64,000 nucleotides of DNA from assembly GCA_008632985.1 (NCBI GenBank), contig QPGO01000015.1, forward strand, positions 683,998 to 747,997, written 5' to 3'. Shown here one piece after another: positions 28,027 to 58,750 of this stretch (position 1 is the first letter of the stretch; each line of letters starts with the position of its first letter). The position numbers were made by a program, and so were the translations under genes. The DNA is from Psammoneis japonica (lineage: Eukaryota). The notes beneath the pieces are model-generated. The model was not told the DNA's origin. It did not search any database and saw nothing but the letters and a program-made list of their open reading frames with translations.

Positions 28027-28746
28027 TTATATTGCGTCATAGTATGATGATCGTGGTGACCATTCCGACGGAGGAGGCCCCAGAGTGTTTTCGGGGAAAC
28101 TTTTTACAGGAATGGGGTTGTATATTGCTCCATGCACTTCGTTTTTGCTTGCTGTGTCATTTTCACAGTGACCGGTCTCGCCCACACACGAAGCACTTAA
28201 AGAGTTGTCAAGGAATGCCTCAGCAAGAATGCTTGCCGTGTTCTCGTCCAGAAAAAGCCCCGACTCTCTGCGTCCCGAAGAGACGGCTTTTCGTTTCATA
28301 TGGACCTCTTGTAGTGCTGGACAATCTGCTTCTTTCCTTTTCTTCCTGCTCTGTGCTCTCTTTCGTGCTCCAATTGCGTCTCGCAAACAATGCCCCACTT
28401 TCTCCCTAGCGCGTACATCGCCAATGTCTATGTAACCTTTCTCGTCCCTTTTCACAAAACGACAAGAGGGTGGACCTTCTCGAATGTGTTCCACAATTGA
28501 AAGAACGAGCAGAGTTTTGTCCAACTTCGTTTCCGCTCGTTGATATTGATCTGCATTTGCGGCGATAATAGAGCGGAAGAGTTTGTTGCCATCATGATTG
28601 TGAAGTTGTTTTCCGCGACCGCAAATAATGTCAAAGCTCGATGGTACGTAGCCTTGTGGTAGCCGATGCTCTGGACGTGGCGCGCCAATCTTGTGGAACG
28701 CAAGAATCGGTACGGGTGCCAGTAGTTGTGTGTCGCTTTGGTTCAT
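28027..28746 (-). CDS. DUF6824-type domain protein (diatom-expanded family)
   Basis: DIICGRGK...H.GN..FR......Y...KLDK.....IV..IR....RFVK......GD..AREKVGH.LRD. Confidence 0.8.
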   Translation of the reverse strand: MNQSDTQLLAPVPILAFHKIGAPRPEHRLPQGYVPSSFDIICGRGKQLHNHDGNKLFRSIIAANADQYQRAETKLDKTLLVLSIVEHIREGPPSCRFVKRDEKGYIDIGDVRAREKVGHCLRDAIGARKRAQSRKKRKEADCPALQEVHMKRKAVSSGRRESGLFLDENTASILAEAFLDNSLSASCVGETGHCENDTASKNEVHGAIYNPIPVKSFPENTLGPPPSEWSPRSSYYDAI

Positions 28747-29252
28747 TCGCCGCTTCAAGTTGCTGTGAACTATTGTTTTTGTAAGTGGACGCTGCGTGTC
28801 TGCTACAATATTTTTTCAATTTGTGAGAGCGCATTGCAACTCAAACTGCCTGTGCAATCCGAGCTGACGCAAGATTCGTGGTCGCGCGGAAACACCGAGC
28901 TCGCCACGCTCACATGCTGATAGAGCTTTTGGTCGCATTTTAATCGACAGTTCACTCTGTTCTGTCAGCACGGGGTTCGTGCAATGAGCGAGTCCCAGGC
29001 TCGACTTCTCTCTCTCTCTCTACCGGTACTCTAGGGCTCTACGTTAGAAAATGGAAAATTGATGAGTGATAGAAATACATGATGCTGACTGTACGGTATT
29101 TACGCGTTGTCCCATGCATGGTACCGTGCTGCGTTTAGGTTTGATGAAAACGTAGTTCAGTTTTTCCTCGCTTAAAACCTTTAACACTAATTGATTCTGG
29201 TTTAGGAGACACATTCCACAACCATCTGCAGAAATGTGCCAACGTTTAGCTG

Positions 29253-30074
29253 CTAGTGTCTGCTGTGCTGATCGTAGTGTTGTTTTGTTCTATCACCTGG
29301 CCTTTTTGTCTGTTTGAACGCTGACATCCCCGCAACCCCACCCCCAGGCTCATGAGTTCTTGCTGAGTTATCATTGGATCGCTTCCCAAGAAACGTATCA
29401 ACTACAAAATCGGTGAAGAATTCGTCGCAGAGAGTGTCATCGTCATCAGCGGTGTCATGAGATTTTAGTCGTTTTGGCTGTTTTTCAGAGTTATCCTCTT
29501 GTTTCGATTTATCATCTTTTCTTCTCCTTTTCTTGTATCCCGCGATCAAATCCCTTAGTGCATGCCCGACTTATCAGGTGTGAGCGACAACAGTGAGTAA
29601 GATTCATATCGAGTTGAGCGTGTCCCGCATTTGTTCTCAAGCAAAATTACTACCGTAGATGGCACTTTCCAGTGCCCGAGCAGCTCCCTTACCTTTCTCT
29701 TTTGCCAATGCATCTCCCAGCTCGTAGTACCTCCCAGTTATCTCGTCTTTTTTCACGAACCCTCCGCCTGGCGACAATGCACGAACTTCGTTGACGATTG
29801 ACGTCACAATGCTTGATTTCTCCATTTTCGTAGTCGCCGACAAATATCTTTCCGCGTTGGACGCAATTGTTTTACGGAATCGCTTATTGCCGATGTGGGC
29901 ATGACTCTCTTTGCCTCGTCCACATAGAACGTCGTTTTCGGAGGGAACAAAATCGTCCGCAAGCGGTATTTTTTTCTGTTGTCGTTCAGCTCGACCTGAC
30001 CCTTGAACATCATTTTCACTGCTGCGGGCAGCCGTCCTGTTATGATTGGGTATTTGCTTGTTCATTCTTTTCAT
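29253..30074 (-). CDS. DUF6824-type domain protein, tandem paralogue; 2 exons
   Basis: DVLCGRGKE...H.GNKRFR...GGGFVKK...LAKEK, then an intron (gtaagg...ataag) and VGHALRDLIAG. Confidence 0.8.
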
Positions 30075-30477
30075 TTCTTTGGCGGCTAGCCAAGGTAGTC
30101 TGCTTTACCATTCGTGTTCTTCGAGCCTGTGGAGGAGGGGGCGGCAAAAAGCGATGCTTCTCAAAAAACTGCGCCGCCAAGGAGTTTTTAGTCCCGAGTC
30201 TTGATGTCATTATGCTGATCAATCGTGTGAAATTTGTCAAAAATTTGTTCTTATGCTCATGCGCCACCAACTCATGCTTCAGTCGTGGTTTCTTTTCGAG
30301 ATGATGCTTCCGGAAGCGTTCTCATCTACATGTAAAAGACAATGCAACAACGGGAGTCTCAACCCACGCGGTTTCACCGCCAACGCATGTAACAGAGAGC
30401 ATTTCATGGCACTGGTGCAAACTCTCAAACCCCGAGAGAGCTTGTTTGGTTGCTTCTTGTTGCTTTTTGCGGCTGGG

Positions 30478-31520
30478 CCACCTGTCTTGGCTTCGAAAGA
30501 ACCACTCATTTGGACAAGGGTCAGAGTGGCATGTCTGTCTCAGGTGCTGCTTTTTCACTCTGATTGATGATGCAATCACTTTGTTCTTTCAAAAAAGGAA
30601 CAAAGAGCAGAGCAAGAGGTGTGGTTGTTGTGACCAGGATGTGATGAGGCAGGCAAAACAGACCTGAAAAAGCTGTTTGTGTCACCCCACATGTCTTTGA
30701 AGCAGCCAGGATGAAAAGCCAGCTGAAGCTGCTTTGCTTCCACAGACTGCCAGCAGAACTCTGGCTTTGACAAAGATCACACCAGAGAGCCACTGCTGCC
30801 TTTGGCTGTGCTTGTCTGCTTGCAGCTGTTTTGACAGTCGGGGCCTGCCACCACGCAAGAGATGTGCCCAAGAGAGTTGACAACAATCGCAAGCTCTTTG
30901 TGGAAGAATTTGAGTTGAGAGGCAGAATTTGCCAAATTTTCTAGATCTGCCCTGAAGTGCTTCCACATGAGTTTGATGGTGTGTCACACACAGCATCATT
31001 GACAGAGATGACACAAGCGCAAGGGGTTTTGTGGGTCAGGGTGGCAGAGAAACAGAGTGGAAGAAACAAAAAGGGGGTGCAACAAGCCTGAGCAAAAAAC
31101 ATGAGAACAAAGTGCATTGGAAAGAGGAGCATCTTCCTGGCATGAAAAGTGATTTACAAGTGAAGCTGTCATGCTGTGCGTTGTGCAGAGCTGCAGCAGC
31201 AAGGAAGCTGCCGGCGCCAGCTTTGCAGATCTGTCAGTTTTTCAAGTCAACCACAACCAAACTCTGAGATGAGAAATGGGGGTCATCAGGGTGATGCCTC
31301 TGACAATGAGAGCTGCAAAGAACCCTGTTGGTTGCACAGCTGCCTGTGCCAAAACACAAAAAGCTGAAAAACAAGACAAGCTTGCCACCACCTGCCTTGT
31401 CTTCTCTTGTCAACACAAAGTGTGAATCTTTTGATGACAAAGTTTGCAAAACAGCAGGAGAGGAGAAGAAAGAAACAACAAAGAAAGCCAAGTCCTCCAA
31501 TGGCAAAACTGGTGAAGCAC
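30478..31520 (+). pseudogene. Decayed duplicate of FAN1 upstream region and 5' coding sequence (part 1)
   Basis: Aligns by eye to ~37760-38760. Examples: ctgtcttggcttcga, tttgtggaagaatt and ctgtcagtttttcaagtcaacc; translation KLKNKTSLPPPALSSLVNTKCESFD vs KLKNDTNLPPPAASSLVNKKCESLD. Confidence 0.9.
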
Positions 31521-33949
31521 AGCAGAAAGGAGAAGAAAGAAGCAGAGGAAAAAGCTGGGGTTGATGGTTTGACACTCACTGGCCAGGCATCTGCAACATG
31601 TTTTGGTGCTTGCCTTGTTAAGAATGAAACTTGTCAAGAAACAAAATTGTTGCATGTGGGCTGTCTCTGTCCACCAATCTTCGATTTTCTCACTTGTCAA
31701 TTGTGCATTCTCACAAACATTTTAATTTGATTGTGAAACTCACCAACAAACAAAATTGTCACAAACACGCCAACTCTGTCCAGTTGTTAATCATGCATTT
31801 GTGCAAACGTTAAGTCACAAATGATTTGACCATTTTTTGCCTGCGTGGCCCGATTTGCAGTCGGCTGACACACACATTTTTTCACACCACACCACACACC
31901 ACATTGATGCCAACAGCCGCAATGATGTGATTCATGCATTTCAACTCTTCTGATGACTCCCTTTGCTGGTGTCGACTCACCACAGTCACAAAAGGTGTCA
32001 CATGTCTTGGGTGTGTTGTGGGTGGGGGCTTTGTTGAGAAACATCGTTCTCTCATGTTGACAAGAAACACCAAAAAACATGGAATTGACATGACCCATGC
32101 TTTGATGTGTGTTCATTCAATGCATCTCCTCTCTTGTGCACCATTGCTGTCATCTCTTCATCATAGATGCAAAAAGTGTCCCCCATCTTGTTTGTGCTGT
32201 GTGCTTGATTTGTGGTGAGAAATGTTGGTCTCACACTTGTGTGGTCTCGCATCAGCCATTTGTGATTGTTGCTGACCCATGCTTTGATGTTTGTTTGCCC
32301 ATTTTGTTTCTTTGCTCACACTTCTTTTTTCTTGTCTCTTCTTTGTAGTTTCGAAAAGATTGTTTTGTCTTGTGTTTGCTTTTGGTGGGGTCTGTGAAGA
32401 GAAGGATCCATCATGCCAACTGAGGCATGCACCGAAATTTTCTCCTGGCTTTCCCAGCTGTTGTGGCAATGCACTTTTCAACCGAGGTGGTGGGCATGTT
32501 GGAAGCCAAGAACTGGGATCTCAAGCATGTGGAGAGTGCATTTTCTTTGTCAGGTGTCCACTGCCAATGTGGGGAGCACACCTGAGATGGCAGCATCAGT
32601 GATGACCATAAGATCCAGTGCAAGGCAATCAACAAGGCACTCAAGGTTCTGGGCCACAAAGCTTGGAACTGTGGGTGCAAGAGTGGGGAGCAATGCAATG
32701 AAATGACAACAACAATTGAAGTGGCTAAAGAAGCTTCTGGATGCTACAAATTGAAGTGCAAGACGATCATCAAGTGGTTTCAACACTGTCTTCAATTCGG
32801 AGAGACACCGGCCGAAGGAGTGTGGTGCATGATGCTGCCAATGAAAATGAGGAAGCAACAGCTTCAGATGACAGAAGAGTTTGTTTGGCATCACCATTCT
32901 GTTTCACAACTCAATTGGTGTCCAACAGATTGGATGAGTGGGAAAGATGTGTTCTCAGAAGTGAGGACAGTGCATGTGAGAAAGGCACTTGGTGGCACTG
33001 TGCCTGCTGCTCTGCTGGAACTGCTGCTTGGGACTGTGGTGAGGTGGTGTGTTTTCCGCCAAATTGACAACATTGACATTTGTTGGCAGAAACACCCCAT
33101 TCTCCACCCATGGAATGTCGAAGGTGCCAAACAGGGCTTGTGCCGCATGCGTGCTCCTGACACCATCTGATGCCGACGGTTGGCTCAATTGCTGTGACAA
33201 TGGATTGAGTCTGGATGTCAAGTTGGAAGATGTCTCACAAATGACATGGTTTGTCCTGCACAGGACCTGGTTTGCAATTGCCGTCCATCATTTTTGTCCA
33301 TGTGCTGTTGGATTTCCACTGAGCACTGCAGCTGGGTGTCGTGCAGCCTGAACCAGCTTGCTGCTCTCTGCTCCAGCTGGCTGACAGGTGCTTGCTGCAC
33401 AGAGTGAAAGGACAGTGGCTAAAACAGGTCAAGCAACATCTCAGAGCACATGCAGGGCTGCATGTGATGTCAGCCTGACCATTTTTGCAGATGGCGGCAA
33501 TGGGCATTTTGGGATTTGCCGCCTCAGCAAGAGCCCTGCATTGACTGATCGGTCCACATCATCCTGCTTCTTCTTGTTTGACATTTTCTTGACTCTCCAA
33601 AGACATTTTCAAAGGCATCTCCAGTGCTCTTCTTTCTCCATTTTGGCCTGAACCCTGACAATGACTTTGGCAAGCACACCCCCCGCCCAGCACTGCAGGA
33701 AGAGAAGCACTGGGAAGAGCAGGAAGAGTTGCACAGATTTAAACTTGCCAAGGCATTGTCTTTGCATCTCATGAAGCAAGCAACAGCACCACTGCTTGGA
33801 AAGCCATTGCCAGATGACAGAGACCAGAAAAATGTCTCATCTTCTTCCCTCTTGCCATTGCCGCAAATGAAGACAATGGCCAGAGTTTGTCGGCCACACA
33901 TCCTCAGTTCCCAAGGGGTTCACTCTGGTGGCAAGTTTGATGAGATGTC

Positions 33950-35900
33950 TTGCTGGTGTCTCCAGTTGTTGGAGCAACAAACTTGCTGGGGGGGGATGGT
34001 GCATGATGCACAGGCCAGTGCCACTTGAGAAACTAAAATGGAGCATGTGGTGGTGCTCCAGATCATCATCATCACCATCAATGCAAAATGGTTTGAGTTG
34101 CCGCCTGCATGACATGCACCCCAAATGCACTCAGCCTGCATTTGTTGAGTGGGTTCTTGGCCCAAGTGTGGTGTCTTTGCAATCTTGATTTGGGAAGCTG
34201 CAAGCCATGTCTTGGGCAGCAGCAGCAGCCCAAGGCATGATTCCTCCACACAAGAAGATGCCCAGCTTCACAAGGTGTGAAAGCACCGCGCCCACAGATG
34301 TGGCACAAAGAAGGAGGTTCACAGCTGTCTTGGGATGGCATTGGAGGACTCCAGTGGGTCCCAGAGGATGCAACAACAACAATGGTTGGGAAGCAAAGGC
34401 TTTTTCTTGTGTCCACACAGCCCTTTGTCTCTCTGACATGACCGGGCTTCTTGGCCCAGCCGCCACACCTGCAAAAACAAGAAAACCATCTGTGCGACAG
34501 TGCAAGTGCTCTGTTGTCTTGGGGTGGCCTTGGATGACTCAATCGGGTCCCAGAAAATGCAACAACAACAACGGATGGGAAGCAAAGGCCTTGTCTTGTG
34601 TTGGTGCGGCACCTTGTCTCCCTGGCATGACTGGGTTTGGCCCAGCAAAGAACCGTCCTGCTGCAAAAGAAAGACAAGGGAACTGTCTGTGTGACAGTGC
34701 AAGCACTCCATGTTGTCTTGGGACATTTGCAAGAGACTCCATTGGGTCCTCAAGGAGGCAACAACAACAGTGGTTGGGAAGGAAAAGCCTTGTCTGGTTG
34801 TGAGTTTGGTTGCATGTCTTGGTGTCTCTAACTGGAGCAACAGGCTTGCCAAGGGGTGCACGGCACATGAATGGTGCACAGGCCAAGGCCACTCAAGAAA
34901 CTGAAGTGGAGCATGCAGTGGTGGTGCCCCCATGTTCCAGCAAACATTTGCCAAATGCCAAGCCAGATCATCATCATCATTGTCAATGCACATTGGCTTG
35001 AGTTGCTGCCACCTGCATCATGACATGGACCCCAAAGAATGCACTCAGCCTGCATTTGTTGAGTGGGTTCTTGGCCCAACTGTGGTGTTTTTGCACTCTT
35101 GATTTTGGGAGCTGCAACAGCCCCTTGCATGATTCCTCCACACAAGAAGATGCCCAGCAGCACAAGATGTGGAGGCACCAGCCAACCTGCAGAGAAAAGG
35201 GAACCATCTGTGTGATGGTGTGAGCACTCCGTTGTTTCAGGATGGCTTTTGGCAACTCAACACCTGCAAGAAAGACAAGGGAGCCATCTGTGTGACAGTG
35301 CAAGCACTCTGTTGTCTCAGGTTGGCTTTTGGTGGCTCAACCTGCAAGAAAGACAAGGGAGCCATCTGTGTGACAGTGCAAGCACTCAGTTGTCTGGGGA
35401 TGGGCACCACAAGAGACTCTGTTGGGTCCAGGAGGAGGCAACAACAACGGCGGTTCTTGGGAAGGAAAAGCCTTGTCTTGGGCCAGTGCAGCCCCTTTTC
35501 TTTCTGATGTGATCGGCTTGCTTTGGTGACCAAGCCACCATCCCACCTGCAAAGGCAAGGGAGCTTTCTGCAGACAGCGCAAAAGTGCCCAGATGTCTTT
35601 TGCTGGCCTTGGGTGATTCCATTGTGTCCCAGGAGAGCCAACAACAACAACCTTGGTTGGGGAGCAAAGGCTTGTCTTGTGTCAATGTTGCCCCTTTTCT
35701 TTCTGACATGACTGGTGGCTTCTTTGGTCCAGCCAACACACCTGTGCAAAGATCATCATCGAGCCATCTGTGTGAAAGCACAAGTGACCAGTTGTCTTGG
35801 GATGGCTGTGGGAGGAGACTCCATTGGGTGCCAGGGCATGCAACAACAATCATGGGAATTTGGTGCCGGTGCATGAGAAATTCAAGATTTTTGGTTGCAA
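33950..35900. repeat. Degenerate tandem repeat array (~190-bp unit with a (CAA)n core) plus higher-order duplication
   Basis: The unit gttgtcttggg...gactccattgggtcc...caacaacaac..ggttgggaag.aaaggccttgtctt recurs at ~34325, 34513, 34712, 35390, 35600 and 35790. Block ~33955-34280 repeats at ~34820-35170 (shared gcactcagcctgcatttgttgagtgggttcttggcccaa). cctgcaagaaagacaagggagccatctgtgtgacagtgcaagcactc occurs twice, 79 bp apart. Confidence 0.85.
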
Positions 35901-36105
35901 TGGCTGGAGAGTGCTGCGGGCCCAAATTGACATGGTGCGCAGTGGCTTTGTCATTGTGGAGGCAGCAGCAGTGGTGGCAGTTGCTGGGTTTGGACCATTG
36001 GCTGGCACTGCAGCAGCTCCAGCAGCAGAGCCTTGGTTTCTCTGAGAGCTCCTGCTGTCGAGCTCTTGTGGCTGAGATTGAGCTTGAGATTTGCCAGCTC
36101 AACCT

Positions 36106-36222
36106 GCACAGCAAGACTGTGAAAATTTGCATCTTTACAAGAACACATTGACATGATGAAAACTGTGCAGCAAGACTGTGAAAATTTGCATCTCAACAAG
36201 AACACATCAACACAATGAAAGA
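36106..36222. repeat. 59-bp tandem duplication
   Basis: cagcaagactgtgaaaatttgcatct..acaagaacacat..aca..atgaaa appears twice in tandem. Confidence 0.85.
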
Positions 36223-36714
36223 TGAGAAATTGACCGACTGCCAACACACATGTGAAACCTCAATGACTGGATGATTCATCAAGTCATTTCAAATCATTCA
36301 AACCTTCAAAACTGAATGTGAGCATGGAATTTTAAAACAAAATTGTCACTCAAAAATGATGCCAACAGGAATCACCAGGCAGACAGGCTTGACATTGCTG
36401 CAAAAACACGAACCATCATTTCCTCACAAGACACAAAACACAAGGCTCGTCAAACATCGTGGCAGTGACATCAGAAGCAAGGGAAGGCAACAGAAGAGCA
36501 CCAGGGGGGAGGAGGACAGTGCAAAACACAAGGCAAGAGAGAGGCAGGAACTGAGTTGGTGAGTGCATGGAGCTTGGGCAACAATGCAAACAACTGATGC
36601 TTTTGCCAATCTTTCAACTCAGACATGATTTTGATGACATGCGAGGGGAGCCAGAAGGGAAGACGGCCCTGCAGGGGCCACACAAAGGTGGGCAGAAACA
36701 GCGTTTGCACCAAG

Positions 36715-36952
36715 CACATTCAAAACAATGCAAACACAATGCTCTCATCTGTTGCATGCTCTTTTCTCTTCTTTGCAGGCGATGCTTTGGCAAACTGATG
36801 CGAAACACGAAAGAGACATGGTCGCATGCAAAGGTGAGCAAAAGCTCGCTGTTTTTGTCAAGACAAGCCCACTCAAAAAACAAAACACATGCAATGCTCT
36901 GATCTGTTGCAAGCTCTTTTCTCTTCTTTGCAGGAAAAGCTTTGGCAATCTG
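36715..36952. repeat. ~80-bp direct repeat pair
   Basis: caatgctct.atctgttgca.gctcttttctcttctttgcagg...gctttggcaa at ~36737 and ~36892. Confidence 0.8.
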
Positions 36953-37585
36953 GCATGATGAGCAAAAGAGACAAGGTCACGACACAGAACGAACAACGGG
37001 ATTGTGCGTGGCAAGCAAGAGCGGATGCAAGGGGGTCAGCAAAATGAGCAAAGCATCATGCCATCACTGTGGCATGGGAGAACCGGCAGGAGACAGGAAC
37101 AAGCCAAGGAGGGAAGAGCAGGAAACAGGAAGCAAAAACACATTCACACTGCAGAAATGACAAAACACAGCTGGCACAATCACATTGCAAGGAACACACA
37201 GCCAATGCACGAGCATCTTGGTGCTGCAAATGAGTGTTGCAGTTGTCAGAAATGAGCAATGTTGCAAAGCAGTCACAATTGCACCCTTGTTAAGAAGTTT
37301 CATTGACAATTGTTTCCTGCTTGAAAGGTCGCATTAATTGTGAATGCAGCAAACTGAACAATTTCAGGGTCATTGTGGTCGCAATCTTGTGCAAAGATTG
37401 AATGAAGAATTAGAGTCATTTTCATCAAGTGTCAAGTCCTGCTTGGAATGTTGAAACAATTGTTAAAATTGGTTCACACATGATCAATGAGCACTTGTTG
37501 AGAACACAGGATTCTTGACAAGAGCAAAACGAGTTCTGAACAAGAGCCATGACATTTTCCAGACCAGCTTGCTTCTTTGGGCGAT

Positions 37586-37715
37586 CTTGCACGACAGAAT
37601 GTGGAGAACAGGGGCCAACAATGCCAGACTGTGTTGAAAGGCAGGAGGCAACAATCTGAGTGCTGTTCACCACATCTGCCAACTGCATCTGCCAGAGCAG
37701 CAAAAAATCTTGGTT
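37586..37715 (+). pseudogene. Decayed duplicate of FAN1 coding sequence (part 2)
   Basis: Matches ~38819-38937: ttgcacgacagaa..tggaga and caccacatctgccaactgcatctgccagagcagc vs ttgtacgacagaagatggaga and caccacatctgccaattgtatctgccagagcagc. Confidence 0.9.
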
Positions 37716-38284
37716 TGTTGGATGAAAACAAACAACATCTCAGTGCACTCTTTCTCTGGACCACTGTCTTGGCTTCGACCAAACCATTCATCAAGACAAT
37801 GACCCAAACAGCATCTCTCTGTCTCAGCTTCTGTGTTCTTCATTGCAGTGGAGTGCTCCTTCAAAATGATGAATGAAGAGGAGCAAGGTGATGAGGCAGG
37901 GCAGGCAGGCAGCCAGTGCAGATCTCAAGTGTCTGTCTGTCCCCCCATCATGACTTTGAAGCAGCCGGAATGAACAAGCCAGCCGAAGCTGTTGTGCCTG
38001 CTGCCGTGCATGGAGTCGACTGCATCCTGGATGAAAATCACAATTGGCCCTGCCACTCTACCATCTTAGAAAGCAGCTGCCAGCTGCCGCCTTTGGCTGC
38101 GTCTTATCTGCCACAGTTGTTGTGACGGTCACGAGCTATTTGTGGAAGAATTCGAGCTACGGCGGCATTTTTTCCATTTGCCCCCGGGAGTGCATTTTGG
38201 AATTTGCCCAAGATTTGCCCCCCAAAATCTTCGCTCACGGACACAAAATGTTTGCATCGACATACTGTAAATGACAAGGAATTT

Positions 38285-41200
38285 ATGGATCAACTGATGG
38301 AGGAAGGAAACAGAAACAACGACAAGGACGCAACAAGCTCGAATGAAAGACACGAGAACAAAGTACGTCCAAACGAGGGGCATCTTGCTGGCACTAGAAG
38401 TGATTTATCAAGGGACTCGTCATACCGTGCTTCCTACAACCGCAGTAGCGCGGAAACCGGTACCAGCTTCCTACCTGTCAGTTTTTCAAGTCAACCGCAA
38501 TCAAACTCTGAGGTACGAAACGGGGGTAGTCGGTTTGATTCTTCTGACGATGAGCCTGAGATCCTGTTGGTTGTGCAGCCGCCTACGCCGAAACGTCAGA
38601 AACTGAAAAATGACACAAACTTGCCGCCACCTGCCGCATCTTCTCTCGTCAATAAAAAGTGTGAATCTTTGGATAACGAAATTGGCGAAACAGTGGGGGA
38701 GGAGAAGAAAGAAACAGAGAAGAAAACAGACTCTCGGTCAGCAACCACTGATTCGCCTCAGTATAGTTGCCAAACATCCGCCTACGTGCAAAATCTTGCG
38801 GAGATTTGCTACACCATATTGTACGACAGAAGATGGAGAGTAGGCGCCAATAACGCCAGATTGTTGGAATGGGGGAGAGGCGACGATCTAAGCGCTGTGC
38901 ACCACATCTGCCAATTGTATCTGCCAGAGCAGCGAAAGAGCGAAGTCCAACAAAAGAGAGAACGATGCCGATGCCTGCTATGCCGATCAAACAAGGAGAA
39001 GCAGCCACTTCTCGACGAAATTCAGTCCCAAAGTAACGCACAGGGAAAAGGTTTACCAGTATCTATTGAGAATGTCAAGGGGACAGCTGGTGAACTTGAC
39101 GAAATGGCTGATGATGATGTTCGTGCACTCCACCTTTACTGCCGTCTCTTTTATCGGAAGGGTCCCTGGTTTCGCCTCGATGACTTATATGCACGCTATT
39201 ACGCTCCCAAGAATGAGAGAATTCGAGATGGCTCTACATTGTCATCTTCATCTGAAAGCAGCAATGATAGCGCGAATGACGCCACAGCATCGACGGAGTT
39301 CTTCCTGCCAAAGAAAGCAGGAAGAAAGAGCCCAAGTGTGATCGACGTTGAGATAGATGATGAAGTTTATGAGGCCGTCGCCTTGCTGTGTCGTGATGTT
39401 TCTCGCCTTCATTCTCTAGGGATGATTCGATCATTTTGCAGCGAAGAAGAGTGCGGAAAGACGGTTGGTGAGGTGTCGGGCGACGGAAAATGGGCTTTTT
39501 TCACTGCGGAAGAGCGTCGCACAATATTGTCCAAACTTGGCGGCGGGTCCAAAACGTCTGCTACTCACCAATCGAAGCGAACACCTTCAATGCCGGATAA
39601 AGGTGGAGGAAACATGAGCAGGAGGAACGAAAATTTAGTGTGGAGACAAATGCGTCGACAGCACTCCATTGTTGGACAAATCAGCAAGAACGAGGACCGT
39701 CGAGTCCTGTTGCCTGTGAGACGCCACGTTAACGAGTTATTGTATCAGAAGCTTGCCGCAAAAGCGGTTCTCTCTTCCAATTCTGATAACAAGAAATCTG
39801 CATCGATTATTCGGGAAAGAGTGACGGAAGCAAGAACTGCCATTCTTCGCCGCATTGAAGACGACCACATTGGGTTGGACATGTGTATTCGCCTCCGCGA
39901 GGCTCCCCTCCTTAGCTTACGTCGTTTCACTCGATTATATCTTTGCGCGTCACATGGTCCTGGCAATATGCGAGGCGATGGGTCAAATGGGTGGATGAGC
40001 TTGAAGGACCCGCTTGCCTTGCACAAAGATGTGCCAATGCAGAATTTTGTTTCCCCTCCCGGCTCTCATAGGTGGCATAGCATTTCATACCCTGCACTGA
40101 TGCATCGTTTCGGCATGAATACTTGCGCCTTTGCGAATTCCTTTCAGACGTTGCCGATGATAGATGGAAGTTCTCATCAATTCGGACAGGAAGAACACAT
40201 CTATCGGGGGTTACGAACTTCTGATATGGAACGTGTCTTCACCAACCATAGTGACTTTCTTATTTGGGAGCTGTGTGCTGAAATTCGAGCAAATGTCGAC
40301 TATCTCATCGAGGTGAATGATTTAACACATTATCATGCTAGGCGGCAAGCTCGCCAGGGAAATGAAGCATGCGGAGATGATAATAATTCCGGGGTTACGA
40401 ACGAGAGCTCACGCCCGCCTGAAATGTCACCTGCGAGTAACCTATCCATGTCATGCCATGTCGATTTTCTCGACCTACTGACAACAGCTGGAAGGCTAGA
40501 CATGCTGCGGAGCTTGATGGTATGGTGCGACCACGACGAACGCGTTTCGGATTTTGCGGACGTCATTTCTGAAGTTCAGAAAAAAGTAGAAAGCGACGTC
40601 TTGGCGCTTGGTGTCACGGTGAAAGTAGCAAACGAATCTCCTTCAGGGACCACGATTTTGCCTACTGCAGTTTCCGGTTTGTGCACCGAAGATGTTGCAA
40701 GCTGCTTCAAGAACGAATACGAAATGATTTTAGGGGTTGTTGCCGTGGTTTCTATGCATGTTCTGAGTTTTCGACATCGCCGTGTGTCACCGCTCGACGT
40801 TTCATTGAGAGTTGCCAGACCTTGGCTCCGACATTTGTGGTGGGACGGGAATCTGGCTTATGTGCTCTGGGATTGCATCCCAGTTCTGGAGAAGCGAGGA
40901 TACTACGGGCTGGCCTCTCGGGCTCTGGAAGTGCTGCTATTCGGCTCTTTCAAAGACCAACAAACAATAGAGGTTTCTGTCCCAGGCGAAGCTATCCGGC
41001 AAAATATTATGCCACCCTCAGCACCGTATGCCGCACTGCTGATATCCAGAAGAGCCCGTGGTAAAGCCTTTGAACGACTCGTGATTGACTACACGCATAT
41101 TCTTCGGACACGATCCAAAGAAGTGAAACCGAAACACGCGAAAGGTCGCAGAGCTGAGAAACAGACGCAGAAAAAGGTCACCCCGAATCATGTAGCTGCT

Positions 41201-42673
41201 GTGGTGTGCAATGAAATATTGAAGAGTGTAGTTTCTAAGGGTTCCATACCGTTCTCGGCCATAAGATCCCTTGCCAAAAGATTAAAAAGGCCGTTGGATG
41301 AAATTCTTGTAGGAGAGCGGTGTATGGAAGCACTCGACTTGGGCATCCGACTGGACAACCCGATAAGATGGGGCGAGAGGGAACTTTCGACGGACGAGAA
41401 AACCAAAACTAGAGGTTACGAAGATTGGACTCCCGTGACGGATTATGCCGTTGCCAATTCCATTGAGGGCGAGACGTCTGAATTGGGAAAACGATGCAGC
41501 TACGTGGGCTTCGAGGACGAAAACAGCGCTCCTGCTAATCCGGCTTCATTGAACGTTGAGGAGTTGGCGATGGAATTCTATAGAACAGGGAGACTCGGTC
41601 CGGTAGGGCCCAGTGAACCTCGAGGAGGTTGGGTGGGCTGGCACGACGAGGGAGGCCATTTAAGGGCTCTCTTTCGAATCCTTTGTTCCAGCAGTCTCTT
41701 AGGTGTAGACGGTGGTTGCAGCAACCAAACTATGAGCGCTATGATGGCCATAGAGAACGCAACGGTCTTCTTGACACCCTACCAAGGTGCCCCAGGCGAT
41801 TTACACGTGGGTCACGCAATCATGAATGGCACATCCAATACGGAAGACGGTCAAGATAATGGTGAAGTGTTTGTTCGAGGTTTCTATAGACGGCATCAAG
41901 CGAGAATCACCGAGTTTCTTTCCCTGTTGGAGAGGCTGGGAAAAGAAGAGCTTGTTGACCTCGTCTATGAATCTGTTGCAGAAAGGTCAAGGTTTCTAGG
42001 CACAAGAGCTGACAAAGATCCCGCGTTGCAGCGAGACTTCCAAATGATTCGCACTCTTTCAGTGCTCGCTGCCGGTTTTGGCGGCAAACTTCTGTCCGCA
42101 ATGTTTCGGTGCCTTTTATTTGATTACCGCCACTATAGTGGTGGATTGCCGGACTTGTTGCTTGTCCGGGCTCTATATGACGTGGAAGAGGCGCACAATG
42201 ACGAGGAAAGCGCTCTTTCAAACAGGCTTGTTGATTTAGGCGAGTGGGTTGGCGAAGGCTTTTTCAGAGAAAGACAGGAAGAAAAGGAGATGTCGAAAGT
42301 TGCGAGTTTTCTTGTTGACCAGGACGAGGAATTCTTGGGATGCAGCAAAGTGGGTGATTCTGGCGCAGGTCAATCATCCGGGCGATGGGGAGGTGGAAAA
42401 CGCCGACGTGCAATGCAACATCGGGACTCGTCGCAAGAGGATGAGTCTGGAAAATTTTCCACAAGTAATCTGCCCGAGAAGCTAAGTCTCCTCCATGGGA
42501 ATCGGAAAGTTGATGTGCAATGCATGTTTGTTGAAGTGAAGAGCTCCAACGACCGGTTGGATCCGAGGCAAGAAGATTGGTTAAACATTCTTGATAGATT
42601 TGGTAATGCAAGAGTTTGCAAGGTTGGCAGCGGAAAAAAGAAAACCCGAAAGTCTGCTATCAACAAGAAATAA
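38285..42673 (+). CDS. FAN1: Fanconi-associated nuclease 1-like (VRR-NUC domain)
   Basis: Intronless ORF with first in-frame ATG at 38285. Motifs LYCRLFYRKGPWFR, RGKAFERL.ID..H, VEELAMEFY, GW.GWHDEG, DYRHYSGGLPDL and FVEVKSSNDRLDPRQEDW. Confidence 0.92.
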   Translation: MDQLMEEGNRNNDKDATSSNERHENKVRPNEGHLAGTRSDLSRDSSYRASYNRSSAETGTSFLPVSFSSQPQSNSEVRNGGSRFDSSDDEPEILLVVQPPTPKRQKLKNDTNLPPPAASSLVNKKCESLDNEIGETVGEEKKETEKKTDSRSATTDSPQYSCQTSAYVQNLAEICYTILYDRRWRVGANNARLLEWGRGDDLSAVHHICQLYLPEQRKSEVQQKRERCRCLLCRSNKEKQPLLDEIQSQSNAQGKGLPVSIENVKGTAGELDEMADDDVRALHLYCRLFYRKGPWFRLDDLYARYYAPKNERIRDGSTLSSSSESSNDSANDATASTEFFLPKKAGRKSPSVIDVEIDDEVYEAVALLCRDVSRLHSLGMIRSFCSEEECGKTVGEVSGDGKWAFFTAEERRTILSKLGGGSKTSATHQSKRTPSMPDKGGGNMSRRNENLVWRQMRRQHSIVGQISKNEDRRVLLPVRRHVNELLYQKLAAKAVLSSNSDNKKSASIIRERVTEARTAILRRIEDDHIGLDMCIRLREAPLLSLRRFTRLYLCASHGPGNMRGDGSNGWMSLKDPLALHKDVPMQNFVSPPGSHRWHSISYPALMHRFGMNTCAFANSFQTLPMIDGSSHQFGQEEHIYRGLRTSDMERVFTNHSDFLIWELCAEIRANVDYLIEVNDLTHYHARRQARQGNEACGDDNNSGVTNESSRPPEMSPASNLSMSCHVDFLDLLTTAGRLDMLRSLMVWCDHDERVSDFADVISEVQKKVESDVLALGVTVKVANESPSGTTILPTAVSGLCTEDVASCFKNEYEMILGVVAVVSMHVLSFRHRRVSPLDVSLRVARPWLRHLWWDGNLAYVLWDCIPVLEKRGYYGLASRALEVLLFGSFKDQQTIEVSVPGEAIRQNIMPPSAPYAALLISRRARGKAFERLVIDYTHILRTRSKEVKPKHAKGRRAEKQTQKKVTPNHVAAVVCNEILKSVVSKGSIPFSAIRSLAKRLKRPLDEILVGERCMEALDLGIRLDNPIRWGERELSTDEKTKTRGYEDWTPVTDYAVANSIEGETSELGKRCSYVGFEDENSAPANPASLNVEELAMEFYRTGRLGPVGPSEPRGGWVGWHDEGGHLRALFRILCSSSLLGVDGGCSNQTMSAMMAIENATVFLTPYQGAPGDLHVGHAIMNGTSNTEDGQDNGEVFVRGFYRRHQARITEFLSLLERLGKEELVDLVYESVAERSRFLGTRADKDPALQRDFQMIRTLSVLAAGFGGKLLSAMFRCLLFDYRHYSGGLPDLLLVRALYDVEEAHNDEESALSNRLVDLGEWVGEGFFRERQEEKEMSKVASFLVDQDEEFLGCSKVGDSGAGQSSGRWGGGKRRRAMQHRDSSQEDESGKFSTSNLPEKLSLLHGNRKVDVQCMFVEVKSSNDRLDPRQEDWLNILDRFGNARVCKVGSGKKKTRKSAINKK

Positions 42674-51681: not shown

Positions 51682-52048
51682 TGCACTATGCTCGAAGAAC
51701 GAGTGTAAACGAAAGTAGAATAGTGTACGAAAAGTGGAAATTATAAGATTAAATTTTGCTCTGTGATTTTTGGTTTCTCCGAACGAGTTCTCAATGGCCT
51801 AAAGCTTCTGTGCTGCTTCTACAGACAAAAGGCCTTTCGGAGAATACATTCGTGACAACAGATTGTCCGGACACGATTGCTGTTGACACGCAAGATGTCA
51901 ACATCGTCAATCGATCGTATTTGCAATTCTCGACATCCGATCAACTCTGTGTGATCGTTCTGTCCTTTGCACGCATCCACGACTGTGGTGCGATTGACAC
52001 ATGAATGGTGTGCAATCACAAACATGTGTGTGACAGTCGCACACTGCA
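51682..52048 (-). repeat. 3' LTR
   Basis: Ungapped match to 56040-56406; adjacent to the PPT. Confidence 0.93.
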
Positions 52049-55000
52049 TTCGCCTCCCCAATTGCACATTAGAGTCATTTGTAAGTGGATCATTCGACGG
52101 ACATCGACAGTGTCAACAATGTCTCCACTTTCACTGCATTGTGCCATTGGCAATGACTGTTGTTGTTTTGTACAGGCAACACAGGGCCGTTCCAATTTCC
52201 GAATGTCTTTTGAGAGTGACATTGTTTGTTTCTCACTTAACATGTGCACACATGGAATTACGTCGAGCATTCTCATTGACGTTCTTGTTGACATGAACAC
52301 AAGGACTAATTGTCCTGGAGTGAGTGTTTTTCCTGATGTCGATTGCACATGGCATCGTGCCCAGTGCTTAATGTGTGCTCTTAATTGTGGCGTTCACTTG
52401 CTTGCTTGTGGATTTCATGCAGTTTGGCGGGCTTGCTTTACACGCCACATTGCTCTGCTGCACTGCCACGTTTCACAAGCAACAACAAACGATGGTCAAA
52501 GATGTTGTGACCATTTCGTCTTGATGATCAATCCTGTGATTGTTATGAATTCCATTGTGGATTTTTTTTTGCACTTCAACCATCCATCAGTTGGATTTTA
52601 ATCGTCATTTGGACGTTTCTTTCTGACATGCCGGTGTCATTTTGTCATTCCGAAGGCACTGGTTTCGTGCACTAAGTGGATGAATGTCCATTTTTCTTTT
52701 CTTTTTCTAGATCTTTGGCACATCTCGTGTGTCGACATGATGCACATTTTAATGTCTTGCCTCGTACATTGTACAATACAACCGTACGGGTGTTGTGAGA
52801 TTGTCTTTTGCCAGTGTGAAGTGGATGCGTATAATGTATGCCAATCTGTCACTGTTTTTTCCTAAATCGTCCTTTAAAAAGGCGATTTTATCCTTGTGAC
52901 ATGAGCATTTTTCGATCTCGCTCGCCTCCACGAAAAGTGTTCGTATGATATGTCGCGTCCGACAATTTGGAGGGAATGTCTTTATCCCGTTTTAACGGTA
53001 GGACATTGTCGTAGGATTCAATTTTCTATAGTAAGTCGGCTGATCGCGTCTATCGCGACGATGTTCGCCTTGCCCTCGTTGTATTCTAATTCGGGACTGA
53101 AGTTGTCAACGTATGACTTTGTCCGTTGTGTCTTATGATCCGTGTATGTATAAATCTGTTGGCCAAACAGTATATTTCGGAATTTTATAAGTGTTTTCAC
53201 TATGGACAGAAGTTCTTTTTTCCGTTGTAACATGTGTTGTTGAAATCCGTGTATGATAACAATATAGTTTTTGATTTGATACGCTCCACATTTTCGGAGA
53301 CTTTTCGTTCCGTACTTGTACTTTTGCCGTTTGACCTTTGTTGAGGTGAATTTGGCTAGTATTGTACAGGAGATCGTTGAGACTACATGTCTCGATAATA
53401 GTAACGTATGACAACGAGATGTCGTAGTGTTCTTTACGTTTTTCTCGTGTTGCGATTGCTTAAATCGCCTCCATTTTCTTTGTAATCGATTGCATGTCGT
53501 TACGTATGGAAGTCTTGATAGTTTATTTCAAGTTAAATAGTGAAGGACTTTTGTTGTTAACCTTCTAAGCAACTGTTCTAGTCGTTTGAATGCCGCATTA
53601 AGCTGTTACTTGTACAGGTGATATTTTGAAGTTACTTTTGTCAGGCACAAACGATCACATATAGTCGTTCTGACAACTTCAAACCTGTTATGAGTTCACT
53701 CAAGTGTTGTATAAAAATGTCTGGGGCTCTATAGATTCTCATTGGAAGTCCACAGTGCTCATTTTCTCCCCACGGCATGATTTTCGTGTGAGCACGACGT
53801 GTGCTTTTTTTATTTGACATGGTGGCATTCCATGTTTGAATCAAATAGATTACATATATGAAACGTTCTTGCTTCAACAGTATTTCCTGAACATTGGGTA
53901 AAGGACACACCACCTGTATGAACCTTGTGCTGAGCTTCTGAGTGTCGGATGCGGTCGAACTCGACCTGTTTTCTTTAGACAATGAGTCTCAGAGCGACTC
54001 ATTCAGAGCAACTTCATTCTTAAGACTTCAATCTTTCATAATAGGTCAAACTCCTTTTGATTGGACGCCTCCAAAGACTGTGACAGGAGAAGGTTCTCAC
54101 GCGTCGTGGAATCGCGTCAGATTTTCCACGATGAGATCCACTGATGCTTCCCACACATTCGTCTGAGGAACTTTTCAAAACGATTTCAACCTCTTAAGAA
54201 GAAGATTGAGTTGGTTGTGTTCATTTGGGTTAGATGCATCGCCGTAGTTGTCACTTGATTAAGATCGATGGCGTGACAATGTGAGTCGAGGACCATTGGT
54301 TCCGTCATTGACTCTGTTCACGGCGTCACATTTTTCAATGTGATCGGTTTTCAGCTTGAAAACATCGGCATCGAAGAGTGTGTGAACATTCTTCATAAGG
54401 CAATTGCTTCTTCCCATTAGATTTCTTCATTTGCGTAGTCCAGTGTGACTTGTAGGACTGGACATTAAGTCGCGTCCCATGATCACATCATTTGAACCTG
54501 AAGAAAATTTGGTGTTTTCAACACACACTGTTTGCATGTCAGCATGCCTTAAATTTCGCACAGTGAGAACTGAATTCGGTGTTTACTGTCAGTTGTAAAG
54601 AGCTCACCCTTGGTTTCCCAAGTTTTTGGTGGCGGATTCTTGTGTTCTCAACTTTCGCACGAATTTGCGCAAAATTGTGGTTGACGATGTTCCGTTGTCG
54701 ACAGGAACACGCAGATGCTTTTTTTCTCTCCTTTCCCAAGGAAGTGTTCATATAAATGATGACTCCTGGACCAGTGTGAATTATTTCTGCCTTTTTTCTA
54801 GGCTTCCTAACATCCAGCAAAGCATGTGATTCGTGAATGGACCAAAATTGTTCTTCGGATTCAGTCTGGATCATCCGATCAAATTGGTGTTTTTCTTCAC
54901 TGAGGGCACCAGAATCTGATTCTTTGCCCTTGTGCTCTTTTTCTTTGTTCAAGGAACTCGCTTTGAGCATTTTTTGAACCGCCTGATCAATCATGACGTT

Positions 55001-56039
55001 CATCTCTTTTTTTTTGCGAGCGGCATTTTCGTCATCGCGACGCGACCGCGTGCGATTGCCATTTGAACGGCGCATTTTTGGGTCTCTTTCAGAGTCACCC
55101 TTGCACTCTTTTGCTAGTTCATTTTTAGAATGGCTTCAATCCGTGATGCAGGTATTCTTTTTTCAAAGACAAGACCTTGCATTCACTTTGGATTGTTCTG
55201 GTACCATGCAGGAGACCATTTTTGGAACCAAATTTGGAACCTTTTTTATTTTGGAACCAACTGCGCCATCAGAGCCTGAGTTGACATGTTTTTTCGTCAC
55301 GGACGTCATGAACGACCTTTAGATGACTCAAAACTTAATCAGCTCATCAAGGATGAGTTGCAATGGTTGATTGTTTTGGACAGTAGACTGATGCTGCCAT
55401 CCTTGCGGTGCGAGTGACAGCTGATAAATCAGCGCTCGGTTTCCCGCTAGATTCGACTTAGAATCCATCTGAGGGTCGCACAGACTCTCATCATTGACCT
55501 CTTGGGTCTAACAGAGGCTTTCTTGCTGTCAAGCAGCTCTGGTTTCTTCAGATCGTCTTGAAAATGACAATTCTGATTCTGAAGTGCAATTCTTGGAAAG
55601 ACATGAGACATGAGACTCTTGAGGTACTTTCCAACGGTTCCATCTTGCTCTTGGACTCAAGGCTCGTTGATTCGGTCTCCAAAAACTCTCCAACAGTCTC
55701 TCCTTGCATGCCAGACGCATTTCTCGGACCTGATCGACTCGGAACTTGCATTCTCTGCAACCATGACTTGGTGTAGATTTTTTTGATAATGCGGTGTACT
55801 TGAGAGCCCTTGATCCTTGGGTGCTTGGAACAGACCGCATTAAAGCGAATCCTCTTGTCTGGCAGACGAAAAACAGCGTCCCATCTTGAGGTGCTGCTCG
55901 GCTTGAGCTTCTTCCGCTCGGAAATCGATTCCAGCAGAACTGGTGCGATTCGTTCCTGTTTGTAGAAGAATTTGCAAAGGCACATTAGTTAAAATTTTCA
56001 TTTTCCGTGCTTTTTACCTTCTGTGGTGTGTATGCACAA

Positions 56040-56406
56040 TGCACTGTGCTCGAAGAACGAGTGCAAACGAAAGTAGAACAGTGTGCGAAAAGTGGAAATC
56101 ACAAGATTAAATTTTGCTCTGTGATTTTTGGTTTCTCCGAACGAGTTCTCAATGGCCCAAAGCTTCTGTACTGCTTCTACAGACAAAAGGCCTTTCGGAG
56201 AATATATTCGTGACAACAGATTGTCCGGATACGATTGCTGTTGACACGTAAGATGTCAACATCGTCAATCGATCGTATTTGCAATTCTCGACATCCGATC
56301 AACTCTGTGTGATCGTTCTGTCCTTTGTGCGCATCCACGACTGTGGTGCGATTGACATGTAAATAACATGTAATCACAAATGTGTGCACAACAGTCGCAT
56401 GCTGCA
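56040..56406 (-). repeat. 5' LTR
   Basis: Ungapped match to 51682-52048; upstream of the gag-like region on the minus strand. Confidence 0.93.
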
Positions 56407-56767
56407 GCTGTGACACCTTCGAACCTCCACAGCCAGAATTTTTTTACCACGACATAACCACGGCCGCTAGCGACATCCTCTTTTGATGTTGCCACTGTTC
56501 AACAAGAAGCTTGCTCTCGCCGACACCACTTGCGCTCTCAACAATGGAAACTAAGAGATTTTTGTCGGGTGAGTCACATCCTTTATCGTGCACTTTCCAC
56601 GGGCTCAGGAAGTGTCGGCACCAACCCATTTTTTTCTCTTCAGCTCTCATTGCGGCTCGACCCATCCCAACCTACCCGAAGACGTGTGTCTCCGTTACCG
56701 TCAACAGGAGCCCGTCACCACTGGCGCCTCCATCAGTTCTGGGCTTGCCATGCCCACTGTAGCGACC

Positions 56768-57510
56768 ATGACCATCGACAACCCACATCTTGACATTGTG
56801 CACCGGCCCGAGTTTGACATGATCGACGACAAACCCAAGAACAATTTGTCGCAACTTAGAGGAGAAACGGCTGCAATTGACGTGTCCATTCCTCTTTACA
56901 AGATCCTCCTCGACCCAACAGCGGCAAGGCAAGTGCATGCCTCACCAAAGAAGACACCTGTTGGTCAAGCAGCAAAACTTTTGGTGCAGCGTCACAACAG
57001 ACTTTACAAACAAAACGGCATTGAAGCCGTGCACGTTTTTGACGGCGCTCACAACCCGCTCAAATGGCGAACTGATGCAAAGCGTAGAGCCAGAAAAAGA
57101 CCTGTTGAAGACAGGACATTGTTTCTTCTTCAGTGGAACCGGCCAGAACAAGATAGACTCGAGGTGCTGAACAGGTGGAAAAGCATTGTTTGTCCAAGAG
57201 GTGACATCATGCTCCTGATCAAGAAAGCATTCGACCGAGAAAGAATCCCGTGTGTTCAAGCTGCCATTGAAGCTGAAGCGCAGTGCGTGGAGATGCAAAA
57301 TTCGGGGGTTGTCACACACATAGAATCTGAGGATGGTGACGTGCATGGGCACAACGGTGAGAAATGGATCACCAACTTAAACCCCCACAATGGCGACTGC
57401 TGCATGTTGGTGGCGGCTGATGTCGATGCTCATGAGATGCTGGAGGTGGCCGTTGGAAGGATTTCAAGTGTGCCACTCCTGCTTTTTGTGGTTGTGACTA
57501 CAATGTCAAG
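56768..57510 (+). pseudogene. Transposon-borne Exo1/FEN1/XPG-family 5' nuclease, truncated
   Basis: XPG-N motifs (LSQLRGETAAIDVS, GIEAVHVFDG...PLK..T..KRR) and XPG-I motifs (IPCVQAAIEAEAQC, IESEDGD), with FCGCDY in a shifted frame at ~57484-57501. Confidence 0.8.
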
Positions 57511-58750
57511 CCAGACAGTTTGCCTTTTTCAGAGACGATGGAAGGATGCGCAAATGCGACTGACAAGAAAAAGTTTCTCGCGGACATTGAAACAGGTGAT
57601 TGTCCATGAAGTCCAAATCGAGCATGGACATGCAAAGCCCCACTTTTCCAAGACGAGGCATCCACATCTGTGCTGTCCGTGGAAGCCAGCTGTTGCCTTC
57701 ACGATGCCATGTCGACCCCAAAGTTGCCACCCGACAATCCCGGTGCATTGTCATTGCACATGTCAGCACCTCTTCGACCGCCGTGAATCGCTCCTTTCCC
57801 ATGCCGTGTCTTTCCTCTGCATCAGGAAACCAAACCTTGGTGACACAGCAGATGGTTTCCTTGAATGTGCCTGGTCCCCAAAGATGCTTCGCCATTCTGT
57901 CATGATCCTCACGCCACTTGCCGCTCGTCAGATTCTCCCTGCTCAGTCCACCCATCGCTTCAATCTCATCCTCCCGCTCCAAGCACACTTTCAACTTTTG
58001 AGCCTTGTCTGCCAGCTCTGACGATGCTTTGTCGGCTCTTTTCAATGCAATTTGAAGCAACTCATTCACACGCTCAAGCTCCACTCGCAACCTGACATTC
58101 TCCTTTCCCGCTCCGTCTGGATCAAATGCGGCGTTCCTCTGTGCTGCTGCAACTTTTCGGACTGTTGGCGGTGGACGAGGCAAGTCTCTTGCATGGTCTT
58201 CCTCATCAAGATAAACTCCAATGGGGTCCAATGATGCGCGGGCTGACTTAGCATCTCGCTGACAATCTTTCTTGGTGCAGTTCGGCGCCGGGCAGTGTGA
58301 CATTTTTCCGTTGCTCCGATCTCTTGCGTCACTTTTGTGAAAGCACAGCAATTCTCACGTCTCACAGTCCACATTTTCCAAAGGACCTTTGTTGTCCTCT
58401 TTTAAAACAGCAGGATGGAAATGATTGAATCCGATGTGTTCATAATTGCCAGCAGGTTCCGGTGGCACACAAGAGTTCCCAACAAGATGCCGATGCGCCA
58501 CGACTCTCATGTTGTTGTCACTTGCATTGCCGCTTCCATGTGGCCTTCTTTTGCTGGCGCAGGGAAGGTGGCAGCAACCACACCTTTTTTTGTCACCAGC
58601 ATCAATGAAGTCCTTTGTGCTCTGCTTGCACTCTTCCTTGTCACGGCAGATGCAAGGGCAGAGGGTAGAGTCGCACACCTTTGTGATGGTTTCTCTGGGG
58701 ATCTCGCTTGCGTTTGGGAGACGCCGCCGCAGATGATTCTTCTGTCATTG
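57506..58750 (-). pseudogene. N-terminal part of an ISL2EU/Harbinger-like transposase (Cys/His zinc-binding region, coiled coil, HTH); catalytic core absent
   Basis: Starts just inside the right TIR. Cys-rich segment ending HFH (THAP-like), coiled coil, then FTAVEEVLTCAMTMHRD...LG..W...W.PRL resembling the HTH that precedes DDE_Tnp_4 domains. Frameshifted. Confidence 0.55.

Follow-up and report, generated by a model that had tools for sequence, protein, structure and literature searches.

The window analysed here, a stretch of 64,000 nucleotides of contig QPGO01000015.1 from the stramenopile alga Psammoneis japonica, contains a block (positions 30400–38040 of the window, hereafter zone A) from which most TA dinucleotides have been erased. 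This text addresses the neighbouring bases that govern the survival of TA sites in such DNA, the mutational process that removes the other sites and the kind of agent that could be responsible for it. Judged by its sequence, the block comprises the first, truncated copy from a tandem duplication of the 5' end of a nuclease gene, together with an insert of about 6 kb and 280 bp lying upstream of the intact copy. The intact copy, a plus-strand open reading frame (ORF) of 1515 amino acids (aa) at 38126–42673 with a C-terminal VRR_NUC domain (FAN1-like nuclease), displays ordinary TA and CG contents and served as the unmutated reference. The duplicated portion matches the upstream region and the first 800 bp of this ORF. 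Indeed, the mutated copy, also on the plus strand, carries the region upstream of the gene and the gene's first part at 30480–31555 (about 75% identical to 37764–38727) and, beyond the insert (31556–37583, with internal tandem repeats), a continuation at 37584–37705 (80% identical to 38816–38937). The upstream region of the intact copy (37764–38040, plus strand) is still included in the mutated block.

The depletion of zone A is almost saturated, since 93% of all TA have been lost (survival 0.07, compared with 0.2 for CG). In 1-kb bins from 31001 to 38000, the observed/expected ratio (o/e) of TA is 0.00–0.07, against 0.36–0.79 in the ordinary parts of the window, and that of CG is 0.13–0.31, against about 1. 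Conversely, TG and CA reach 1.7–2.0 in these bins (about 1.8 over the block, where the o/e of CG is about 0.2), while AA (1.12–1.31, which is normal) and AT show little change. The block has sharp edges: ordinary TA and CG end before it at 30390 and 30384, respectively, and resume after it at 38059 and 38088.

A sequence scan finds exactly 21 TA in the block. Nine of them are TTAA (word starts at 31618, 31722, 31787, 31810, 33739, 36332, 37290, 37334 and 37463), three are TTAB (TTAC at 31155 and 36136, TTAG at 37411; B is any base but A) and five are VTAA (ATAA at 32609, CTAA at 32726, 33420, 34034 and 34829; V is any base but T), leaving only four with neither flank (CTAG at 30942, ATAG at 32164, GTAG at 32346 and CTAC at 32745). 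An earlier examination of the letters alone (the sequence-only reading) had counted about 21 TA, comprising nine TTAA, eight one-sided words and four with neither flank, and had held that TTAA would be a small minority by chance; the count and all nine TTAA positions are exact, and the expectation is borne out by every background considered. TTAA represents 63 of the 1860 TA found elsewhere in the window (binomial p 1.2e-8 for the excess in the block), 27 of the 849 TA outside ORFs of at least 250 aa, 7 of the 82 TA in an unmutated transposon interior and 6.7% of TA as predicted from the base composition of the block. Across these four backgrounds the share is therefore 3.2–8.5%, and the probability of finding at least nine TTAA among 21 TA ranges from 6.9e-9 to 2.7e-5. 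Furthermore, the density of TTAA in the block (1.18 per kb) is at the background level (1.31 per kb), whereas the other TA classes are reduced from 5-fold to more than 40-fold, so that TTAA has not been lost there. The reading of these words as target-site duplications was considered and rejected: the word shared between 31619 and 37291, CTTGTTAAGAA, is an 11-mer, and about seven such chance matches are expected in 7.6 kb.

Survival was analysed by fitting Poisson models to the ten strand-symmetric NTAN classes, with expectations taken from the ordinary DNA of the window. By flank is meant the base on the 3' side of the mutated A, which amounts to the complement of the base located 5' of the mutated T. 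Relative to the background, survival in the block is 0.91 for TTAA, 0.22 for CTAA/TTAG, 0.08 for CTAG, 0.05 for GTAA/TTAC, 0.04 for CTAC/GTAG, 0.03 for ATAG/CTAT, 0.02 for ATAA/TTAT and zero for ATAC/GTAT, ATAT and GTAC. Uniform survival of the NTAN words, the outcome against which the sequence-only reading had staked its context rule, is rejected, as a binary T/A rule outperforms the flat model both in the block (p 2.5e-9) and in the independent zones described below (p 2.5e-7). That reading had proposed a target 5'-VTA, in which V is any base but T. The dependence on the neighbour stands; the binary form does not, because a graded series, T (set to 1) > C > G >> A, fits better. A model with four flank levels is indeed superior to the binary rule (p 0.003 in the block, 1e-4 over all zones) and to a purine/pyrimidine rule (p 0.007 and 4e-5, respectively). 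The relative per-strand rates estimated for flanks A, G, C and T are 0.033, 0.36, 0.78 and 1 in the block, and 0.00, 0.41, 0.60 and 1 in the other zones. The discrimination between TAA and TAT is thus at least 30-fold. The grading can also be seen in the raw counts, CTAA/TTAG leaving 5 survivors for 22 expected and GTAA/TTAC plus ATAA/TTAT only 3 for 81 (Fisher p 0.011). A second flank has an effect too: an A at +2 is found in 0.39 of the survivors, against 0.26 in the background (p 1e-4), and this holds within each +1 class.

The rule is replicated in three other depleted zones of the window: zone B (56600–59300), which retains 25 TA for about 103 expected, including 3 TTAA, and has largely kept its CG, and zones C (53900–56600; 61 TA, 9 TTAA) and D (51800–52700; 15 TA, 4 TTAA), both partly depleted. 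Altogether, 16 of their 102 TA are TTAA (p 3.6e-7), and TTAA is the best survivor in each zone. Zones C and D belong to a retrotransposon flanked by long terminal repeats (LTRs) at 51682–52048 and 56040–56406, which are 92% identical, and zone B to an adjacent unit bounded by inverted repeats of 316 bp (56421–56736 and 58777–59092; 83% identical). The LTR family is highly abundant, as 4873 contig pieces of the public run X1 match 52049–58770 with a depth peaking over the LTR, and 596 of the 725 variant places of this run on that segment are transitions.

Comparisons between copies reveal the nature of the changes. The mutated gene copy differs from the intact one by TA>TG/CA and CG>TG/CA, and word counts on both strands of the block give about 269 TA and 358 CG sites lost, which match the 617 extra TG/CA words. 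In this older pair, 62 of the 88 mismatches are transitions, other changes being also present. The LTR pair is far cleaner: all 29 mismatches are transitions and 28 of the 29 mismatched columns lie at TA-derived steps (TA/TG in 5, TA/CA in 9 and CA/TG in 7 steps, with no step involving CG). As the two LTRs of one element are identical at insertion, these changes occurred after insertion, and the coexistence of the TA/TG, TA/CA and CA/TG steps means that both strands have been hit. At 56100 and 56102, within the second LTR, every other X1 copy reads T and the window reads C. Since TA has changed in this young pair and CG has not, the CG decay is a separate and slower process. Loss indeed follows a gradient, from the young element (TA survival 0.3–0.5, CG nearly intact) through zone B to zone A, where both dinucleotides are largely gone. 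The block has therefore been rewritten by two DNA-level processes, a fast TA-specific A:T>G:C change and a slower CG>TG/CA change. The CG depletion and its products are consistent with decay by CpG methylation and deamination. Context matters for CG survival in the block as well: ACGT is hit hardest (2 for 51 expected on both strands) and CCGG least (12 for 29), and a mild surplus of T-C*-G>T-T-G (the asterisk marks the mutated base) is suggested by the block product words.

The strand on which the flank is read is a more delicate matter. In the sequence-only reading, the base that decides was two positions 5' of the mutated A (V-T-A*), so that the protecting base would not be adjacent to the mutated one. 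The mirror rule, T-A*-B, makes the same prediction about survivors, which alone cannot separate the two, but the products can: V-T-A* predicts VTAA>VTGA and TTAB>TCAB, whereas T-A*-B predicts VTAA>VCAA and TTAB>TTGB. About 96 TTAB/VTAA and 160 TCGB sites have been lost in the block. VTGA words number 247 there, against 205 ± 10 in 19 background chunks, and TTGB words 466, against 271 ± 6. Hence only 42 extra VTGA are seen where V-T-A* predicts at least 96 from TA alone. With the CG losses split evenly between both strands, the negative log-likelihood (-logL) in the block is 69.5 for T-A*-B and 116.8 for V-T-A*; with the split tied to CG survival, it is 93.6 and 119.1, or 84.5 and 99.2 once the tandem-repeat quarter is left out, so that the joint fit of V-T-A* is worse by 25 and 15 log units, respectively. 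V-T-A* is rescued only if the CG process has a 100-fold bias towards T-C*-G, and this clashes with the depletion of ACGT, which contains TCG on neither strand and is nevertheless the most depleted CG word. Therefore, the adjacent-flank rule T-A*-B is favoured, although not proven, and V-T-A* as first stated, correct about the survivors, is contradicted by the block products and appears unlikely. Its wording could still hold if the base attacked chemically were the T (V-T*-A).

Several observations weigh against T-A*-B or soften it. With no constraint on the CG split, the block is fitted equally well by a symmetric TA process combined with the 100-fold T-C*-G bias (64.7 vs 65.5). The joint fit in zones B–D does not discriminate (103.5 for T-A*-B, 104.0 for V-T-A*), so that V-T-A* is not rejected there, and product words in these zones are even (+34 for each rule). 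Among the 30 events found by comparing copies, 13 sites discriminate, 8 in favour of T-A*-B and 5 in favour of V-T-A* (p 0.58), the latter including TTAT>TCAC at 56100, ATAA>ATGA and CTAA>CTGA; restricted to sites with unchanged flanks, the comparison gives 7 and 2 (p 0.18). Two of the 40 X1 variant places listed among the 725 discriminate between the rules. The expected counts, moreover, come from a gene-rich background and not from the ancestral block, and the overlap of words makes the likelihoods approximate. Two other points concern the grading itself. Four CTAT/CTAC sites (at 56749, 56784, 58082 and in the inverted-repeat pair) have become CCAT/CCAC while X1 copies read TA; in these cases the strand with G after A was mutated though the opposite strand offered T or C, a small count that speaks against a strict order in which T and C flanks are used first. 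Finally, the inverted repeats show one TTAA/TCAA difference, which may mean that TTAA is not fully immune or that this particular TTAA is new.

A second explanation, to which we assign a similarly low probability, is that the flanks influence the entire site, through DNA shape or a dimeric reader of palindromes, TTAA being simply a poor binding site in the absence of any per-strand rule. The nearly even copy comparisons (8:5) and the even product words of zones B–D would suit it, and in the block T-A*-B is matched in fit by a symmetric TA model once the CG split is free. The survivors themselves are less favourable to it: for an equal number of parameters, the multiplicative whole-site model fits worse than the additive per-strand one, both in the block (-logL 13.2 vs 10.7) and over all zones (71.1 vs 66.1), and the symmetric model with an even CG split is 17 log units worse than T-A*-B in the block.

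It is very improbable that the TTAA words are not survivors at all, having arisen by later C>T or G>A changes of TCAA/TTGA or having been kept by selection or by a factor that binds or methylates TTAA. The block has many TTGA/TCAA words (102 counting both strands), and the TTAA/TCAA difference between the inverted repeats could be read in this way. However, these 102 words are only 6% of the 1701 NTGN words, so that new TA would be TTAA in about 6% of cases instead of 43%; the density of TTAA, equal to the background, shows no excess, and a TTAA-specific protector leaves the graded series of CTAA, GTAA and ATAA unexplained. Lastly, an origin in the absence of any targeted enzyme, be it A-to-I editing of RNA later retro-copied, GC-biased gene conversion, patches made by an error-prone polymerase (polymerase eta has WA hotspots) or sequencing artefacts at modified bases, can scarcely be credited: the affected DNA is repeated and partly retrotransposon and the oldest block has lost CG and TA together, but the two LTRs of a single element have diverged at TA steps of both strands, which places the changes after insertion, a gene fragment foreign to transposons and the upstream region of a gene are affected too, AA is not depleted as a WA hotspot or a general AT>GC conversion would have it, the young LTR pair has changed at TA without changing at CG, and the contigs of the public run repeat the variation of TA versus TG/CA among copies.

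The process is confined to particular regions. The affected DNA consists of a tandem duplicate, an element bounded by inverted repeats and an abundant LTR family, so that duplicated sequence is found in all four zones while the coding part of the intact nuclease copy is spared; duplication overlaps here with transposon insertion or silencing. Neighbouring genes are unaffected, the block being bordered by a DUF6824 gene on one side and by the intact VRR_NUC ORF on the other. Directly to its left are two adjacent minus-strand ORFs (28027–28815 and 29637–30104) with ordinary TA and CG contents, both matching DUF6824 (E 5e-24 and 3e-23). On the right, the depleted state enters the upstream region of the nuclease gene (37764–38126) and ends 86 bp short of the ORF, which is compatible with selection on the coding part or with a boundary set by transcription. 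Within the insert of zone A, six tandem repeats of 189–202 bp are nested in a duplication of about 900 bp (33924–35860; 65–94% identical), and since their periods are mostly not multiples of three, these repeats are probably non-coding. None of the 60 ORFs of at least 80 aa from 30524–37924 gave an above-threshold Pfam match.

The LTR element and the inverted-repeat unit deserve a few further remarks. The LTR element (51682–56406) lies on the minus strand and has lost TA in patches: the interval 52701–53900 is untouched and both sides are depleted. It carries an RT_RNaseH remnant (53021–53527, minus strand), and the stretch surrounding this remnant is not TA-depleted. Neither an exact 34-base word of the LTR nor the RT_RNaseH ORF found a match or relative in metagenome contigs. 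The unit of 2.7 kb between the inverted repeats (56421–59092), depleted in TA and with CG largely kept, contains an open frame of 482 aa (56573–58021) with weak XPG_N and XPG_I matches, for which no relative was found among proteins of 265–844 residues. The X1 contigs carry further copies of this unit, one of them a 600-bp piece with 27 letter differences.

Taken together, these data make it probable, if by no means certain, that silent duplicated DNA is rewritten in this genome by a strand-wise, flank-dependent A:T>G:C process at TA, to which CG decay is added. Each strand would be targeted separately, at a rate set by the base pair that adjoins the mutated one. Seen from the strand that carries the mutated A, the target would read 5'-T-A*-N, with rates of 1 for T, about 0.7 for C, about 0.4 for G and at most 0.03 for A, and an A one step further out would reduce the rate again. 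TTAA would be immune because it offers a protecting neighbour on both strands. The agent would be an enzyme that reads sequence and is aimed at DNA that is repeated or silenced, as suggested by the discrimination between TAA and TAT, the separate action on the two strands and the sharp regional limits. The sequence-only reading had likewise preferred an enzyme to compositional drift, and this preference gains support from the strength of the discrimination, from the rejection of the flat model and from the concentration of 28 of the 29 LTR mismatches at TA-derived steps. The leading candidate would be a DNA adenine deaminase of the TadA/ADAT kind, since the tRNA substrate of these enzymes reads U-A*-C; alternatively, the base hit could be the T, which would imply a thymine-directed chemistry. 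The stronger proposal, namely that a stramenopile alga carries a repeat-directed editor of double-stranded DNA that converts A:T into G:C only in 5'-T-A*-(T/C>G, never A), is a tentative one, to which we give slightly less than an even chance. If true, it would amount to a genome defence resembling repeat-induced point mutation (RIP) with the opposite chemical direction, in which TTAA is the one TA word that cannot be erased, and its fingerprint of three to five bases could help to single out the enzyme among diatom and chlorarachniophyte genes for deamination or for thymine modification.

Among known systems, RIP, which operates in Neurospora and other ascomycetes, converts CpA into TpA and therefore enriches DNA in TA. 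The likeness lies in a region-wide transition hypermutation of duplicated sequence that acts on DNA with a dinucleotide preference, can spread over the DNA lying between copies and leaves neighbouring genes intact. The enrichment in TA typical of RIP is absent here, where TA is destroyed and the GC content rises. ADAR enzymes, which convert A to I in double-stranded RNA, prefer U on the 5' side and G on the 3' side of the edited A. The A>G changes and the 5' U are reminiscent of the present process, but here the best 3' neighbours are T and C (T > C > G >> A) and the changes affect DNA, on both strands and after insertion.

A biochemical parallel is provided by TadA and ADAT2-ADAT3, which deaminate A to inosine, read as G, and whose target A34 is directly preceded by U33. 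DNA-editing relatives of these enzymes exist in the form of TadA-derived base editors. In the substrate of bacterial TadA, A34 is followed by C35, and this U33-A34-C35 sequence resembles the T-A*-Y target (Y is T or C) found in the window. Two features of this family argue against a simple attribution to ADAT. The housekeeping eukaryotic ADAT2/3 accepts an A after A34, whereas TAA is the one context spared here. Furthermore, amphioxus BjADAT2, which edits both A and C in DNA, is described as preferring 5'-T for C (TCG) and GAA, not TA, for adenine (PMC10354150).

The nearest counterpart at the genome level is the TpA-restricted hypermutation that affects giant-virus and virophage DNA integrated in Bigelowiella natans, as set out in the main text of a recent preprint (Mettrop et al., bioRxiv 10.64898/2026.01.13.699255). 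[quoted passage not shown] The A:T>G:C transitions, the confinement to TpA and the regional limitation to repeated DNA are all found here too. The differences, as far as the main text of the preprint allows the comparison, lie in the organism (the genome studied here being stramenopile-like and poor in introns), in the nature of the targets (a gene duplicate and transposons here, viral inserts there) and in the nearly saturated TA loss (93%), joined here by CpG decay. The words 'context', 'TTAA' and 'trinucleotide' do not occur in that main text, so that the flank rule is not described there, and the supplements (Table S2 lists mutations) may hold contexts. A full-text literature search found no paper joining TpA hypermutation with TTAA, and the papers retrieved on diatoms, TpA and transposable elements include none on the topic, judged by title or abstract.

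TpA-directed hypermutation thus appears to have been reported once so far, in this 2026 preprint on a distant alga. To that description, the present analysis adds graded rates, their replication, the effect of the second flank, the additive form and a test of strand assignment. The resulting fingerprint (TAA spared at least 30-fold, TAG intermediate, TAT and TAC fastest, with a further effect one base out) is of the kind that identified AID/APOBEC and ADAR activities elsewhere. It offers a means of detecting this process in further genomes, whose remaining TA should be TTAA, and enables a direct assay, for example with oligonucleotides carrying TAT or TAA. The rule also corrects the dating of transposons by LTR divergence in such genomes, and a genomic-DNA editor of natural origin with A:T>G:C activity would be of interest to base-editing work. 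The context rule is real and enzyme-like, and the process that it describes is kin to the recently described TpA hypermutation.

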